DNA of 26,393 bases. Source: Promethearchaeota archaeon (GTDB taxonomy: Archaea > Asgardarchaeota > Lokiarchaeia > Sigyniarchaeales > SOKP01). Positions 17,050-25,512 of the stretch are shown piece after piece (within the stretch, counting starts at the first letter, position 1; every line of letters starts with the position of its first letter). Position numbers and translations under genes: made by a program. A model generated the notes under the pieces. That model was given only the letters and a program-made list of their open reading frames with translations. It was not told the origin of the DNA and did no database searches. The stretch lies in contig JBHLOY010000020.1 of NCBI GenBank assembly GCA_048939995.1, positions 1 through 26,393 of the forward strand, written 5' to 3'.

Positions 17050-17131
17050 AATTCCAAAAAAATATATATAACACAATTTTTAATTAATTACAAGATTTTG
17101 GCGGTTTTATAAAGAATCTGGGGTGCTTAGT

Positions 17132-17689
17132 ATGAGTTATAGGGGTAAAGCATTAATGGTTGGATCTCCTAATGTTGGAAAAACAAGTCTGTTAGCTCGA
17201 TATGTAGACAATAAATTTAGTGATGTATATCACCAAACAATAGGAGCGAATTTCCTGATTAAAGAAATTGATTTGACCAAAATAATTGATAATGTTAGGA
17301 TTGAAAACCCTGAACTACGGCGAGATATTAGCCAAAAAGGTTTTAAGCTATACTTTTGGGACGTTGGTGGTCAACAAGATAAATTATTTGCCAATGAATA
17401 TTACTTTGTACAAGCAGTCGGAGCTATGGTAGTTTTTAGTTTAAATTCTTATGAATCGTTCAAGGATCTTGACTTTTGGATATCAAAATTGAGGGAATTA
17501 AGTGGAGAGGTTCCATATATCCTTGTGGGTAATAAATCAGATTTAAGGCAAGAAGTTGACAGAGAAATGGTTGAGGATAAAGCTAAAAAGTTAAACATAG
17601 AATACTTTGAGACTTCAGCGAAATTAAATAAAAATGTAGATTTGGCATTTGAAAGCCTCTCAATTCAAATTTTAAATAATTTAAGGTAA
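17132..17689 (+). CDS. Rab-like small GTPase (Ras superfamily)
   Basis: G1 GSPNVGKTS, G2 QTIG, G3 WDVGGQ, G4 NKSD, G5 TSAK; GGGGTG RBS before ATG 17132; no C-terminal Cys prenylation motif. Confidence 0.93.
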   Translation: MSYRGKALMVGSPNVGKTSLLARYVDNKFSDVYHQTIGANFLIKEIDLTKIIDNVRIENPELRRDISQKGFKLYFWDVGGQQDKLFANEYYFVQAVGAMVVFSLNSYESFKDLDFWISKLRELSGEVPYILVGNKSDLRQEVDREMVEDKAKKLNIEYFETSAKLNKNVDLAFESLSIQILNNLR

Positions 17690-17760: not shown

Positions 17761-18480
17761 ATGAGTTTCTTATTAGTTCCAATAGCACCTTTATCAAGAA
17801 CAAAATCTCGACTTCGAGATTGTTTTTCAAAGCAACAACTTAAAGAATTAACTATTGCCATGTTCAAAGATTTAGCTGTTAAACTAGAAAAAGTAGATTG
17901 TTTTGATCATAAAATTATCTATTGTAATAGCACTGAAATTCTAAATTTAGCCTCAGAATATGGGTTAATTTCTATTAAAGAGAAACTCACTAAGCCTAGA
18001 AAATCATTTGATAAGGTTATTGGCGATTTAAATCACATTGCTATTAAAGACTATAATGCAAAAAGGACAATTTTTACTTTTTTGGACATAATATTAATTT
18101 CTGTTGAAAATTTTTATGAAATCGATGAACTTGTTAAAAGAAATCAATTGGTTGTCTGTCCTGCTATCCATTCAGCTGGCATATCTTTATTAGGAAGAAA
18201 TCCTCCAGATATAATCCCTACTTATTTCTCAGAACCAGATATCCCTTCTTTAGTAGCTCTATTAAATAAAGCATATGAAAGTAAATTAAAAGTTGAAATT
18301 TATGATTCATTTAGAGCTGGTTTTGACATAGATATAAAGCAAGATTTAGCCCTTGCTTCCGAATATTTAAAAATTCTTAACTTAACTAATACTGAAACAT
18401 ATAAATTTCTAAAAAAGAATCTAAATCTTTCATTAAGAAAGAGGAATATAAAGAACAATAGAGATTTTGAATTAAAATAA
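17761..18480 (+). CDS. cofC: CofC-like 2-phospho-L-lactate/PEP guanylyltransferase (F420 biosynthesis)
   Basis: LLVPIAPLSRTKSRL...AMFKDL N-terminus, VVCPA..AG..LL, FDIDIKQDL. Confidence 0.78.
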   Translation: MSFLLVPIAPLSRTKSRLRDCFSKQQLKELTIAMFKDLAVKLEKVDCFDHKIIYCNSTEILNLASEYGLISIKEKLTKPRKSFDKVIGDLNHIAIKDYNAKRTIFTFLDIILISVENFYEIDELVKRNQLVVCPAIHSAGISLLGRNPPDIIPTYFSEPDIPSLVALLNKAYESKLKVEIYDSFRAGFDIDIKQDLALASEYLKILNLTNTETYKFLKKNLNLSLRKRNIKNNRDFELK

Positions 18481-19737: not shown

Positions 19738-21030
19738 TTAATTTTTTATAGATTCAATTATTTTTTTACCATTCATATATTTCTGTAAAACCTTAGGAAT
19801 TCTGATCGAATAATCTTCATTCTGATAGTTCTCTAATAGGCAACAAATTGTACGTGTCGTCGCAATTGCCGTTGAATTTAAGGTGTGGACTATTCTTTTC
19901 TCTTTTTGGCTACCGACTTTTCCCATCCTAATTTTTAGCTTACGTGCTTGGTAATCTAAGCAATTACTACAAGAAACTAATTCTCTATATGTTTGTGAGC
20001 CTGGAAACCACGCCTCAAGATCATACTTTTTAGCAGCATTATCATTTAATACACCTGAAGCTATATTTACCACTCTATAAGGAATTCCTAATTCTTTATA
20101 AAGTTCTTCTGAATTTAAAAGTAATTCTTCATGAAAATCCCATGATTCTTCAGGGTCACAAAAAATAAATTGCTCTATTTTTTCAAATTGGTGAACACGA
20201 AATATGCCTAAAGTATCTTTACCATGTGATCCTGCCTCACGTCTAAAGCATGAAGATACTCCAGCATATTTTAGGGGTAATCTTTCGGGGTCCAAAATTT
20301 CATTATAATGAAAAGCTGCTAACGTTTGTTCAGATGTAGCAATCATATATAGATCCTCATCTTGTATTTTATAAAGTTGTTCTTCGAAATCTGCCAATTC
20401 TGCTGCTGCTTTAATTACTTCATACTTTACAAAAAATGGTGTCCATAAAGGACTATACCCTTTTGAAATTAATTTTTCTAATGCGTATGTCATTAATGCA
20501 AGATTTAATGATACAATATCACCTTTTAAGTAATAAAATCTCGAACCTGCTATCTCAGCAGCCTTTATAGTGTTCACACCATCAATTCCTTCAATTAAAT
20601 CAACATGAGATAAAGGTTTAAAATTAAAATCGGGCGGTTTTCCCACTGTATGTATAATTTCATTATCCTCATCAGTTTCTCCAATTGGAACAGAACTATG
20701 CAATATATTTCCAACCAAATAACGATACTTATCGCGTTCCTCCTTAAAGTCTTTAACTTCCTTGTCCAAATTTTCTATTTGATCTTTTAACTGTTTAACT
20801 TCAAGCTTTAAATCGTTAGCTTCTGCGGTTTTTCCTTGATTCATCAGCTTTCCTATACGCGGAGATAACCTGTTTCTTTCTTGTTGTAATCTTTGAAGTT
20901 CGGTTTTTCTATTCCGCCATTTTTGATCTAATTCAAAAACTTTTTTAGCATTAGTAGGATCTTTAAACCTTAATTTCTCTGATTTAATAACTTCTTGTAA
21001 ATTTGTGCGAAATAATTCGAGATCTAGCAA
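19738..21030 (-). CDS. serS: Serine--tRNA ligase (standard type)
   Basis: N-terminal coiled-coil arm, GSRFYYL, IATSEQ, CFRREAGSHGKDTLGIFRVHQFEKIEQF, ELVSCSNCLDYQAR, HTLNST. Confidence 0.97.
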   Translation of the reverse strand: MLDLELFRTNLQEVIKSEKLRFKDPTNAKKVFELDQKWRNRKTELQRLQQERNRLSPRIGKLMNQGKTAEANDLKLEVKQLKDQIENLDKEVKDFKEERDKYRYLVGNILHSSVPIGETDEDNEIIHTVGKPPDFNFKPLSHVDLIEGIDGVNTIKAAEIAGSRFYYLKGDIVSLNLALMTYALEKLISKGYSPLWTPFFVKYEVIKAAAELADFEEQLYKIQDEDLYMIATSEQTLAAFHYNEILDPERLPLKYAGVSSCFRREAGSHGKDTLGIFRVHQFEKIEQFIFCDPEESWDFHEELLLNSEELYKELGIPYRVVNIASGVLNDNAAKKYDLEAWFPGSQTYRELVSCSNCLDYQARKLKIRMGKVGSQKEKRIVHTLNSTAIATTRTICCLLENYQNEDYSIRIPKVLQKYMNGKKIIESIKN

Positions 21031-21493: not shown

Positions 21494-23494
21494 TTGTCTG
21501 AAAAACAGACCATTGATGAAATAAGAATTGGAGTTTATATTTGTAGATGAGGAATCAATATTGGCGCATATATAGACTGTGATAAGATTAGAGATTTTGT
21601 AGCGCAAGTACCAAATGTAATTATAGCTAGAATCAATAACTTTACTTGTAGTGATCCAGGACAACAAATAATAAAGAACGATATCCTAGAATTAAACTTG
21701 AATCGTATTGTAGTAGGTGCTTGCACTCCTAAAATTCATGAACCTACTTATAGAGCCGTTTTAGCAGAAGCAGGCTTAAATCCCTACTATTTTGAGATGG
21801 TAAATTTAAGAGAACAATGTTCATTCGTCCATCAAGATGATATAGATAATGCTACTGAAAAAGCTAAGAGACTAATGCTTGCTGGTATAAATCGAGCAAG
21901 ATATTTAGAAGTTATACCCAGAAAAGAAATTCAAGTCACAAAAACCGCTTTAGTAATAGGTGCTGGAATAGCTGGAATGAATGCCGCCTTAGATTTAGCC
22001 AATCAAGGAATCCAAGTATATTTAATTGAAAAGGAACCCACAATTGGTGGAAAAATGGCTCAGTTGGATCGAATCTTCCCTACGGACGATTGTGGCATTT
22101 GAGTACTGGCTCCGATAATGGTTAATACTTCAAAACATCCTAACATAAATCTTCTAACATATAGCGAGGTCATAGAATTTGGAGGTATTAAGGGGAATTA
22201 TAAAGTCAAAATAAAAAAAAATCCCAGATATATTAATGAGAGTAAATGTACTGGATGCGGACTTTGCACTTTAAAATGCCCAATCAAAGTACCAAATGAA
22301 TTTGATCGTTATATTGGAGAAAGAGGAGCAATTTATATCCCCTTTCCTCAAGCAGTACCGAAATATGCGGTTATTGACGAAGAAATATGCATTAATTGCA
22401 AAAATTGTGAAAGAGAATGTCCGGCAGAAGCAATCAATTTTGAGCAAAAACCAAAAGTTATTGAACTTGATATTGGGGCTGTAATTCTAGCTACAGGTTG
22501 GGATGAGTACCCTATAATGGAAACAAACGAATACAAATATGGAATTTTCTCTGATATCATCACTCAAATAGAATTAGAAAGAATGCTAAGCCCTATTGGT
22601 CCTACTGAGGGTCATGTATATAGAATATCAGACGGAAGAGTACCTAGAAATATCGCTATGATTCAATGCGTCGGTTCAAGAAGTTTAAGAGGTAATCAGT
22701 ATTGTTCGGCTGTTTGTTGTAGTGTGGCATTAAAAAACGCTCAACTTTTAAAGCAGGAATACCCTGAAACTCAAACTACTATTTTTTATATTGATATTCG
22801 TACAACCGATAAAGGTAATGAAGAATACTTTAGAAAAATAAGAGAGCAGAACATTAATTTTATCAAAGGGAAACCAGGGGATATAAAACTTAATCCAGAT
22901 GGTACGATGAGACTATACTATGATAACTCGTTGCTAAATGATGTAGATTTCATGGATTTTGACTTAATAGTTTTATCCACTGGTATGGTTCCATCAAAGG
23001 GAACGCAAGAAATCATAAAAGTGATGGGTTTAACTAAGGATTCTAATGGCTTTCTTTCTGAAATACATGGTTGCTTAAAACCTCAAGAAACAAAGAATAT
23101 GGGAATATATATTTGTGGATGTGCTTCTGGGCCTAAAAATATACCCTATTCCGTCTCTACGGCATTAGCAGCTGCAAGTAAAGCAGCAACTTTACTTTCT
23201 CATGATACTATTAGTCAAGAATTAATTATCGCAGAAGTTAATGAAGCATTATGTATTGGTTGTCATCGATGCGAAAAACTTTGCGAATTTGATGCTATTA
23301 AAGTAAATGAAGCTAGCATTGCTGTTATTGACGAATTGCAATGTAAAGGATGTGGTGTATGCATTTCTTCTTGTCCAGCAAGAGCTTTAGATCTGAAATA
23401 TTATAGAGATAAGCAATTTGAAGAGAAAATAAAAGGAATAGTGATGGGTGAGACAAAAATTGCCAAAATAATTCCAACTTCTATGGAAGATTAA
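21494..23494 (+). CDS. hdrA: Heterodisulfide reductase subunit A, selenoprotein (Sec at UGA 21548-21550 and 22100-22102), 666 aa
   Basis: One continuous frame from TTG 21494 (GGTGG RBS at 21484-21488): RIGVYICR-U-GINIG (= CHCG motif), ACTP..HE, NLREQCSFVH, GAGIAG, FPTDDCGI-U-VLAPIM (= DCxxC/U), CVGSR, YCSAVCC, and ferredoxin motifs. It joins ORF-track pieces 21698-22102 and 22118-23494. Confidence 0.95.
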
Positions 23495-23514
23495 ATTTAA
23501 AGGTGATAAAATTT

Positions 23515-23940
23515 TTGAAAAATAAACAAGGACGAAGAATTATAGCTTTTGGTTGCGAAAAATGAGGTTATTCTGTAGCAGATCTAACAGGAACCACAAG
23601 AAAAACCTATTCTACTGATTTTCATATGATCAGAGTTAGATGCACAGGGAGGATTGGAATTCATTTGATTATGGAATGTTTTTTAAATGGGGCAGACGGA
23701 GTAGCCATTATATCCTGAAAAGAAGGAGAATGTGAATTTGGAAGAGGAAACCTTAATACTTATGAACATGTGAATTTTTTAAAGCGATTATTTAAACATA
23801 TTGGAATCTCAGAAGATCGAATTGAACAATATTTCTGTTCCGCAGCAGAAGTGGAGTATTTTCTTCAAGCGGTAAGAGATATAACCACTAAGATCAATGC
23901 ACTTCCTCCTCTACCTAAACTTAAATCCGAAATTGGATGA
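23515..23940 (+). CDS. vhuD: Hydrogenase iron-sulfur delta subunit MvhD/VhuD, selenoprotein (Sec at UGA 23563-23565 and 23716-23718), 141 aa
   Basis: AGGTGA RBS at 23501-23506, TTG at 23515. Translation: MKNKQGRRIIAFGCEK-U-GYSVADLTGTTRKTYSTDFHMIRVRCTGRIG...NGADGVAIIS-U-KEGECEFGRGN...IGISEDRIEQYFCSAAE...EIG*. Both UGA codons fall on conserved cluster-ligand Cys positions. Missing from the ORF track. Confidence 0.93.
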
Positions 23941-23996
23941 TCTTCCTAAATAAATTTTCGTTGGGGAGAGACAGACTCAAAGCATGAGCTTTCGGA
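23926..23996 (+). promoter_or_regulatory. Eukaryote-like SECIS element overlapping the vhuD stop codon
   Basis: AUGA at 23937-23940; UCUUCCUAA (23941-23949) pairs with UUGGGGAGA (23961-23969); unpaired AAA at 23952-23954, 11 nt after AUGA; GA at 23970-23971; lower helix UCCGAAA (23926-23932) with UUUCGGA (23990-23996). Confidence 0.85.
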
Positions 23997-24027
23997 ATCA
24001 AATATAAAATTAACAAAACATCTGAGA

Positions 24028-25512
24028 ATGGAATCTAAAGAATTGGATTCATGGGAATTTTTGAAAAATATTGCAGAAACTTTAGATTCATATAGGATTC
24101 GGGTGTTAATTGATGCTAAAAATGAAATTATAAACTCTAATGTTTATAATGAGGCCCAATATTATCAAATACTATTTGAAATGTTTGATAAAGAGAGAAT
24201 AAAATATTCTCTCTTGAATTATTTAAATAATAATAAATCTAACGATTTTGAATCACTAAAAAACTTTTCTAAGAAAAATTCAATTTCTAATAAACTAATT
24301 CTAAGTAATATAGATTTATTAAAAAATGAGGGATTAATAGAAATACAATACCCTCAAAATGATACAAATGAGGAAGGTAGAAATCAAAAGATAGAAGATT
24401 TGCTAATTAAAACTTTAAACAAAAGGCCATCAGAAGTTAAATCTATTTATGAGCCAGTAAGCGTCATTTTTAATTCTAATAATTGTTCTGGATGTGGTTT
24501 ATGCGCTGGAATCTGTCCAGTTAACTGTATAAACGTATACAATGGTTTCGGAAAAATTGAAGAAGAAAAATGTATAAAGTGTGGACTTTGCTATTACTTC
24601 TGTCCAAGGACCTATCTACCAGTAAAATTAATAAACGTGAACCAAAATGGAAATTCTAAAATCACTTTTTCCCCAAAAATTGGTTATTATCTTGAAATTT
24701 ATTCAGCAAAAACAAAAATAAAGGAAATATCTGCCATATGCCAAGACGGTGGAATTACAAGTACATGTCTTTATTTCTTATTGGATTCAAAACAGATTGA
24801 CATGGCATTAGGTGCAAAAATGAGCAAAACTCTTTGGCGTCCTGAACCAATGCTAATTAAAACAAAGGAGGATGTATTGAAGACTGCGGGGACTAAATAT
24901 GTTAATAACCCTACTCTTAGATTACTTAATGAATTGAATAAGCATCAGTCCAAAGTAGCAGTCATTGGAGTACCTTGTATGATGCAAGCATTATTGAAGT
25001 CTGAATTTTATAATGTCGCAATTCCCTCATTGTGTCAAATTATATATCGAATTGGAATTTTTTGTATGGAATCCTTTTCATATGAGTCATTATTAAAAAT
25101 TTCTCAATTATTAGATGTAAAGATTAACGATATAAAAAAGACTGATATTAATAAAGGCAAATTTTTTATCTATACGCAAGAAGGGGAACAATTATCAATC
25201 CCAGTTAAAGATATAACTCATTTAGCCAGGAAAGATTGTGAGGTATGTTATGATTTGACCTCAGAGTCTGCAGACATCTCAATTGGCTCTACTGGGGCTC
25301 CTGCAGGCTGGAATACTATAATAATTAGAACACTTAAAGGAAAACAATTATTTGATGGTTTAATAAAACAAAATCTGATAGAATATAAAAATATTAAAGA
25401 GGTTCAACCTGGATTACCCATGGTTGAGAAAATTGCTAATTCAAAAAGAAATAAATGCTTCAAACATATAAGTGAAAAATCGAAGGAAAATATACGTATC
25501 CCTAATTATTAA
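24028..25512 (+). CDS. Coenzyme F420 hydrogenase/dehydrogenase beta-subunit family (FrhB/FdhB) protein with N-terminal helical/wHTH-like and 2x[4Fe-4S] domains
   Basis: CSGCGLCAGICP, CIKCGLCYYFCP, QDGGIT, AGTKY, VIGVPC, IGIFCMESF, CEVCYDLTSESADISIGSTGAPAGWNTIIIRT. Confidence 0.9.
   Translation: MESKELDSWEFLKNIAETLDSYRIRVLIDAKNEIINSNVYNEAQYYQILFEMFDKERIKYSLLNYLNNNKSNDFESLKNFSKKNSISNKLILSNIDLLKNEGLIEIQYPQNDTNEEGRNQKIEDLLIKTLNKRPSEVKSIYEPVSVIFNSNNCSGCGLCAGICPVNCINVYNGFGKIEEEKCIKCGLCYYFCPRTYLPVKLINVNQNGNSKITFSPKIGYYLEIYSAKTKIKEISAICQDGGITSTCLYFLLDSKQIDMALGAKMSKTLWRPEPMLIKTKEDVLKTAGTKYVNNPTLRLLNELNKHQSKVAVIGVPCMMQALLKSEFYNVAIPSLCQIIYRIGIFCMESFSYESLLKISQLLDVKINDIKKTDINKGKFFIYTQEGEQLSIPVKDITHLARKDCEVCYDLTSESADISIGSTGAPAGWNTIIIRTLKGKQLFDGLIKQNLIEYKNIKEVQPGLPMVEKIANSKRNKCFKHISEKSKENIRIPNY

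Follow-up and report, generated by a model that had tools for sequence, protein, structure and literature searches.

A probable bicistronic hdrA-vhuD selenoprotein unit with four in-frame UGA codons and one lokiSECIS in a Promethearchaeota genome

The 26,393-nucleotide stretch of DNA analyzed here (the window) is a complete contig (JBHLOY010000020.1, C21) of the Promethearchaeota archaeon assembly GCA_048939995.1, a 3.75-Mb genome in 38 contigs that has 30.5% G+C and is 98% complete. Its forward strand carries two adjacent genes, hdrA and vhuD (mvhD), which form open frames when TGA is read as selenocysteine (Sec, U), and a candidate selenocysteine insertion sequence (SECIS) element that overlaps the end of vhuD. 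The hdrA coding sequence (21494-23494) begins at TTG 21494, 6-8 nt past a Shine-Dalgarno-like run (GGGTGG), or alternatively at GTG 21485, and ends with TAA; it is a single frame of 666 or 669 amino acids, respectively. After a spacer of 8-20 nt, vhuD follows on the same strand (23515-23940), with a likely TTG start at 23515, ∼8 nt past AAGGTGA, an alternative GTG start at 23503, and a TGA stop at 23938-23940. Standard open reading frame (ORF) calling recovers hdrA only as the fragments 21698-22102 and 22118-23494 and reduces vhuD to a 56-amino acid stub. An earlier note, made from the sequence alone, had claimed that ORF callers split hdrA, lose its N terminus, and miss vhuD, that four in-frame UGA codons are present (at 21548, 22100, 23563, and 23716), and that there are no frameshifts. 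The ORF fragments are as it described, all four coordinates are exact and in frame, and apart from the TGA codons both frames are unbroken.

The first of these codons (21548-21550) specifies HdrA residue 22 (counted from GTG 21485) within a CxU motif, and the second (22100-22102) specifies HdrA residue 206 within a CxxU motif, the canonical HdrA Sec position. The third (23563-23565) corresponds to VhuD residue 17 (counted from TTG 23515), again in a CxxU motif, and the fourth (23716-23718) to VhuD residue 68. In alignments to solved proteins, HdrA U22 falls on Cys13 of chain 5odc_A, in the N-terminal cluster domain. The two VhuD residues align exactly with the two X residues of the Sec-containing chain 9sfi_K and with Cys16 and Cys67, respectively, of Methanothermobacter marburgensis MvhD.

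Homology to known proteins continues across all four codons, as the earlier note had stated. The hdrA product matches 5odc_A end to end over residues 11-652 (E 1.7e-208), spanning both TGA codons, and also matches the solved chain 8rvu_a (E 8e-208). This full-length homology takes in the N-terminal cluster domain, the FAD/thioredoxin-reductase domain, and two ferredoxin domains, and the domain matches comprise an FAD/NAD-binding domain and four Fer4 stretches. The best NCBIfam match is HdrA2 at 828.8 bits, which does not reach the cut-off of 1100 because that model includes a fused MvhD domain. Based on these matches, the hdrA product is predicted to be a flavin-based electron-bifurcating flavoprotein of the heterodisulfide-reductase subunit A type with two Sec residues.

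The vhuD product matches Pfam FlpD with 123.7 bits (cut-off 22.3, E 5.5e-36) over profile positions 1-122 of 123, has the VhuD model as its best profile match, and matches the solved MvhD/VhuD chains 9sfi_K, 9sw2_D, and 5odc_D. It contains five conserved Cys/Sec positions (C14, U17, C43, U68, and C73) and is predicted to be the [2Fe-2S] delta subunit that docks on HdrA. An equivalence of the HdrA N-terminal and VhuD Sec positions through shared homology was also considered. It was dropped when BLASTP detected no homology between the HdrA N-terminal domain and VhuD (E 5.5) and Pfam FlpD gave no match in HdrA.

A six-frame search of 30 related genomes identified full-length orthologues within the genus (70-87% identity) that have one to three in-frame TGA codons each, mostly two or three. 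The individual codons were checked in 25 orthologous loci from other Promethearchaeota genomes. HdrA 22, HdrA 206, and VhuD 17 are TGA in all 25, and VhuD 68 is either TGA or another residue (Cys where read); the four orthologues without TGA at this position are L030, L031, L032, and L042, and Cys was read in L042. At HdrA 308, in the inserted ferredoxin domain, an extra TGA is present in L032, L034, and L036, and the hdrA gene of the window has Cys. Thus, HdrA 308 and VhuD 68 are sites of Sec/Cys exchange among close relatives. In distant homologues from Thermoplasmatales and Bathyarchaeia, Cys occupies each of the four positions.

The same pattern is present within the genome itself. There are three further Sec-type hdrA-vhuD-SECIS units (C26:42516-44932, C8:5437-7907, and C17:76253-73792), which are only 37-50% identical to the pair in the window and have in-frame stops at the same aligned positions (HdrA 22 and 206 and VhuD 17 and 68); the HdrA of the C26 unit has a third Sec at position 80. 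About eight additional hdrA-vhuD paralogues all have Cys at those positions. The placement of each UGA at a conserved Cys position, another claim of the earlier note, is therefore supported by TGA in orthologues and paralogues and by Cys in the Cys-type homologues.

These data bear on the possibility that the TGA codons arose through errors in sequencing or assembly or through recent nonsense mutation, in which case hdrA and vhuD would be pseudogenes or ordinary Cys genes. The fragments produced by standard ORF calling are what such errors would yield, and the assembly is of the metagenome type, with contamination estimated at 5.3%. Against this, ∼25 independent genomes and three diverged paralogues share TGA at these codons, and the 810 codons contain no other stop or frameshift, whereas the other frames contain ∼75 stops at 30% G+C. 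In addition, a dedicated SECIS and Sec machinery are present (see below). The conserved TGA/Cys pattern therefore excludes chance, sequencing error, and pseudogenization, and we assign this explanation a negligible probability.

A second alternative is that the genetic code is altered and UGA is read throughout as a sense codon, such as for Trp, Gly, or Cys; some uncultured archaea and bacteria are known to have reassigned stop codons. However, TGA ends five genes in the window with the next gene directly after it (ORFs at 1625, 2322, 8932, 10886, and 12087, all five of which had been named in the earlier note as using UGA as a real stop), and genome-wide it ends 254 of 1552 long frames (16%). 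In-frame TGA codons are confined to Cys-aligned positions in a few gene families, all of them accompanied by a SECIS. We consider general reassignment extremely improbable, and the conclusion of the earlier note that recoding is site-specific in a genome with the standard use of UGA stands.

Sec insertion at UGA codons depends on a SECIS, an element that was absent from the reading in the earlier note. We identified a Loki-type, eukaryote-like SECIS on the forward strand at 23937-23971. It consists of an AUGA motif (23937-40), a 9-bp stem in which 23941-49 pairs with 23961-69, an 11-nt apical loop (23950-60) that has A at four of its first five positions and G at its last, and a closing GA (23970-71). 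The RNAfold minimum-free-energy structure is exactly this hairpin. The element lies downstream of the four Sec codons, at distances of 2389, 1837, 374, and 221 nt in order, and the UGA of its AUGA core is the stop codon of vhuD, a double use that the earlier note likewise did not describe.

The same SECIS is found within 25 nt of the vhuD stop, or overlapping it, in all 14 loci that were compared (four in this genome and 10 orthologous ones); the C8 copy has a 13-nt loop. In four of the 14, the vhuD stop is the UGA of the SECIS core, and in the others vhuD ends with TAA or TAG up to 24 nt earlier. From these stop positions, it follows that the C terminus of VhuD is nearly fixed and that the core UGA acts as a stop.

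Pair counts and a covariance model were based on nine 43-nt copies of the element, as MAFFT misaligned copies with differing loops or stems. In these copies, the stem is 93.8% paired compared with 35-54% when the partner strand was slid, a percentage that is partly by construction since the loci were chosen with a pattern that demands pairing; the covariation is not affected by this choice. Compensatory changes, on both sides, were seen in eight of the nine stem pairs compared with two to four in the slid controls, and none of 500 shuffles reached any of the observed values. When the covariance model was used to search the genome (7.5 Mb searched, with 150 of 5201 first-look candidates scored), only eight sites were found at E ≤1, each directly after an ORF with an in-frame TGA. 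The element under study gave the sole model match in the window (23933-23975, 49.4 bits, E 4e-8). Four of the eight sites belong to hdrA-vhuD pairs, including the C8 pair, which was absent from the seed, and another lies past a Prx-like ORF with U in its redox motif.

Other sites found with this model follow ORFs of different kinds. Two lie 11-17 nt past the stops of paralogous ∼160-amino acid ORFs with adjacent in-frame TGA codons (UU), with SECIS elements at C16 9817-9859 (+) and C11 426290-426332 (-). This tandem-UU family is absent from the seven Asgard selenoprotein families named in PMC11227280. A further site (C36:9829-9871 (+), 30.8 bits) is at the end of a small hydrophobic ORF that has one in-frame TGA after a Gly run and whose stop UGA is again within the AUGA core.

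A Sec-using cell must also encode the machinery for Sec synthesis and insertion, and the earlier note had proposed a search for tRNA-Sec, SelD, PSTK, SepSecS, and SelB. All five are encoded. SepSecS (481.9 bits, cut-off 224.85) and SelD (195 bits, cut-off 125) exceed their thresholds, and the SelD gene has an in-frame TGA of its own in the active-site motif; the PSTK-like and SelB-like proteins were assigned by best match. The tRNA-Sec gene was not found when RF01852 and ARAGORN were applied to the unspliced genome or with a strict structural regular expression. A weak match from a permissive Rfam scan around SepSecS led to a tRNA-Sec gene with two putative introns (C23:113475-113631, + strand, 157 nt; equal to L021:15476-15632), located ∼220 nt upstream of the SepSecS gene and ∼4.3 kb from the gene for the SelB-like GTPase.

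One of the putative introns (34 nt) interrupts the D stem in its 5′ strand, and the other (30 nt) lies in the T loop. The spliced product is 90 nt plus an encoded CCA and is called by ARAGORN as tRNA-SeC(tca). Its fold is of the archaeal 9/4 type, with a D stem of 7 bp, a D loop of 4 nt, and G73. In related genomes, similarity to this gene breaks exactly at the boundaries of both introns. Seven congeners have an intron-less tRNA-Sec of the same length and fold as the spliced form and of almost the same sequence, T loop included, and two other congeners share the D-stem insert. Because the boundaries and the intron-less congeners agree, the splice sites are not merely fitted. With the machinery present, the objection that the genome might lack it, which the earlier note had raised against its own reading, fails.

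Based on the sequence features, their conservation, the covariation of the SECIS, and the presence of Sec machinery, all of which are direct observations, we consider it very likely that positions 21494-23971 form a bicistronic Asgard hdrA-vhuD selenoprotein unit in which one lokiSECIS serves four UGA codons. In this unit, hdrA would encode the flavin-based electron-bifurcating subunit and vhuD its [2Fe-2S] adaptor subunit, probably on one mRNA. The kink-turn-type lokiSECIS at the end of vhuD would direct archaeal SelB/EFSec and Sec-tRNA(Sec) to the upstream UGA codons, reaching the two in hdrA from distances of 2.4 and 1.8 kb as well as the two in vhuD, so that four Sec residues would replace invariant cysteines. 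A fifth UGA, inside the SECIS core, is presumably too close for recoding and would end vhuD, a discrimination by distance. The TAA stop of hdrA is what the published model calls for. The site-specific recoding of hdrA-vhuD put forward in the earlier note is thus borne out by the TGA/Cys correspondence, the shared lokiSECIS, the Sec machinery, and the normal use of TGA as a stop.

Several points weigh against this interpretation. The PSTK-like protein has selen_PSTK as its best match with 161.8 bits, under the strict NCBIfam cut-off of 290.5, and the SelB-like GTPase has selB as its best match with 237 bits, under a strict cut-off of 242.25. The folding energy of the SECIS hairpin alone is unremarkable (z -0.6), and no Rfam family matched the element, even at E values up to 10; support for the element comes from its motif, position, and covariation and not from its folding energy. 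The manner in which the SECIS loci were chosen and the share of candidates scored in the covariance search (see above) belong here as well. Finally, Sec insertion, a polycistronic mRNA, the reach of one SECIS over 2.4 kb, and the enzyme partners are all deduced from the sequence.

A related possibility is that the Sec machinery decodes these codons but often or mostly inserts Cys, for example when selenium is scarce, or that some sites terminate, so that the four-Sec protein is one of several products. The exchange of TGA and Cys at VhuD 68 and HdrA 308 in close relatives implies that Cys is functionally tolerated, and the retention of about eight all-Cys hdrA-vhuD paralogues in the genome is consistent with this notion. 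However, the presence of TGA at HdrA 22, HdrA 206, and VhuD 17 in all orthologues examined argues for selection of Sec itself, and a Sec-containing SelD and the full pathway have been kept. We regard this explanation as quite unlikely.

The locus was compared with selenoprotein genes of other organisms. In Lokiarchaeota, Mariotti et al. 2016 (PMC4989117) described tandem hdrA-vhuD selenoprotein genes that share one lokiSECIS. In a later survey, Huang et al. 2024 (PMC11227280) found Sec-type HdrA in ∼58% and FrhD/VhuD in ∼57% of 227 Sec-using Asgard genomes, with the two genes always adjacent and sharing an eSECIS-like element. These two papers and the Methanococcus maripaludis structure (PMC13518236) bear out the statement of the earlier note that HdrA and VhuD are known selenoproteins in Methanococcales and Lokiarchaeota. 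The pair in the window resembles the 2016 Lokiarchaeota genes in its tandem order, short spacer, multi-Sec HdrA (including the canonical site near residue 200), and two-Sec VhuD. It also shares a single SECIS placed only after vhuD, with the same AUGA, 9-bp stem, A-rich loop of 11 nt with terminal G, and GA, together with the non-UGA stop of hdrA, a Sec-containing SelD/SPS, and a T-loop intron in tRNA-Sec.

Nothing essential differs between the two systems. In the window, the vhuD stop is the UGA of the AUGA core, whereas the 2016 paper reports such an overlap for VhuU.1 and UGA stops in some vhuD genes (PMC4989117); the SECIS loop has C, not A, before its final G; and tRNA-Sec has an intron in the D stem besides the one in the T loop, the only intron in the 2016 gene. 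Five HdrA Sec positions have been published, and the match to them is made here at the canonical site near residue 200. We conclude that the locus matches the arrangement in Mariotti 2016 and Huang 2024 and is a confirmation of it, with no new principle. The description of the pair as hidden in the earlier note therefore holds for ORF callers but not for the literature, where the arrangement has been published (PMC4989117, PMC11227280).

The pair is also related to that of Methanococcales and Methanopyrus, in which HdrA and VhuD are homologous, Sec occurs at HdrA 197 and at both VhuD positions in the same places, and hdrA and vhuD are syntenic; the M. maripaludis Hdr-Vhu-Fwd assembly has been solved (PDB 9sfi, PMC13518236). 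In contrast to the window, with its one kink-turn-type element for the pair and an extra Sec at HdrA residue 22, those genes have an archaeal GAA/A-bulge SECIS, one per gene, and a single Sec in HdrA. The methanogen enzyme serves methanogenesis with HdrBC and the Vhu hydrogenase, whereas the pair in the window belongs to an Asgard archaeon and has an FrhB-like neighbor.

The Loki element shares with eukaryotic type I SECIS elements, which are located in the 3′ untranslated region (UTR), the AUGA...GA core quartet, unpaired A residues in the apical loop, and a kilobase reach from a downstream site. In both cases, UGA codons close to the element are presumed to be spared by a minimum distance requirement. 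The two types differ in that the upper stem of the Loki element is shorter (9 bp), a long lower helix is not evident, and two cistrons share one element. SBP2 is not known from Asgard archaea (PMC4989117).

Because gene callers split or miss such genes, annotations of Asgard genomes under-count HdrA/MvhD and, with them, the energy metabolism. With the TGA codons read as Sec, four Sec-type hdrA-vhuD pairs emerge in this genome in addition to about eight pairs of the Cys type. The locus is a well-supported case of a single eukaryote-like SECIS for four UGA codons in two cistrons over 2.4 kb, and it bears on the origin of the eukaryotic Sec system, a point that was already made in 2016 and surveyed in 2024.

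The genes on either side of the pair are part of a conserved order: serS (divergent), hdrA, vhuD, SECIS, and an FrhB-like gene. The downstream gene (24028-25512, +) encodes an FrhB/FdhB-like protein (FrhB_FdhB_C 2.7e-39, FrhB_FdhB_N 9.3e-18) with a 2x[4Fe-4S] ferredoxin domain; it is present downstream of vhuD in nine orthologous loci and after the C26 pair of this genome. Its product probably feeds electrons into HdrA-VhuD as an F420-type input partner. Within 24000-24027, ∼20-25 nt before the ATG of this gene, there is an AT-rich, TATA-like box. The FrhB-like gene may thus have its own promoter and a leaderless transcript, in which case the SECIS would lie in a true 3′ UTR.

Divergently upstream, serS (19738-21030, -) encodes seryl-tRNA synthetase, and the same arrangement is found in at least eight orthologous loci. 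Seryl-tRNA synthetase charges tRNA-Sec with serine. Its location beside a selenoprotein pair could reflect coincidence or co-regulation.

The earlier note had also claimed that each UGA lies at an Fe-S ligand Cys position. Ligand status was judged from alignment and from partial accounts in the literature of the cysteine ligands of cluster HA3 and of the MvhD [2Fe-2S] cluster. By alignment offsets, HdrA U206 corresponds to Cys197 of Methanothermococcus thermolithotrophicus, Cys205 of M. marburgensis, and Sec197 of M. maripaludis. The Cys197/Cys205 equivalent has been described as a ligand from one HdrA to the N-terminal [4Fe-4S] cluster of its partner (PMC9012536). By cryo-electron microscopy (cryo-EM), the Cys202/Cys205 pair has been described as dynamic, with an unknown ligand bound to it between FAD and the [2Fe-2S] cluster of MvhD (PMC13580544), and the M. 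maripaludis structure has density for an Se-S bond at U197 (PMC13518236).

In MvhD, Cys16, the counterpart of VhuD U17, is counted among "additional" conserved cysteines outside the [2Fe-2S] ligand set (PMC13580544). By elimination, VhuD U68 (= MvhD Cys67) is probably a [2Fe-2S] ligand. Its neighbors in VhuD are Lys and Glu in place of His68 and Asp71 of MvhD, and substitutions of these two residues by Lys and Glu have been reported (PMC13580544). The claim is therefore upheld for a conserved Cys at all four positions but not for a ligand role of VhuD U17, and HdrA U206 has been described both as a ligand and as part of a redox pair. According to the recent structures, at least two of the four positions are extra redox cysteines near the FAD and not plain Fe-S ligands.

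It is conceivable, though improbable in our view, that three Sec residues converge in the poorly understood space bounded by the bifurcating FAD and the [2Fe-2S] and shuttle [4Fe-4S] clusters: HdrA U22, located in the shuttle-cluster domain; U206 of the partner HdrA, reported to reach this cluster in the crystal form; and VhuD U17. There they would form a selenium-based (Se-S/Se-Se) redox relay or a doubly Se-ligated cluster; by the same proposal, the neighboring serS could tie the supply of Ser-tRNA(Sec) to expression of the operon. If this were true, a selenium relay would act at the step that is unexplained in the 2026 cryo-EM papers.

Elsewhere in the window, a gene for a Ras-family small GTPase (17123-17689, +; Pfam Ras 1.2e-37) adjoins a CofC-like F420-biosynthesis gene (17761-18480, +). 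Ras-family GTPases are typical eukaryote-like signature proteins of Asgard archaea.

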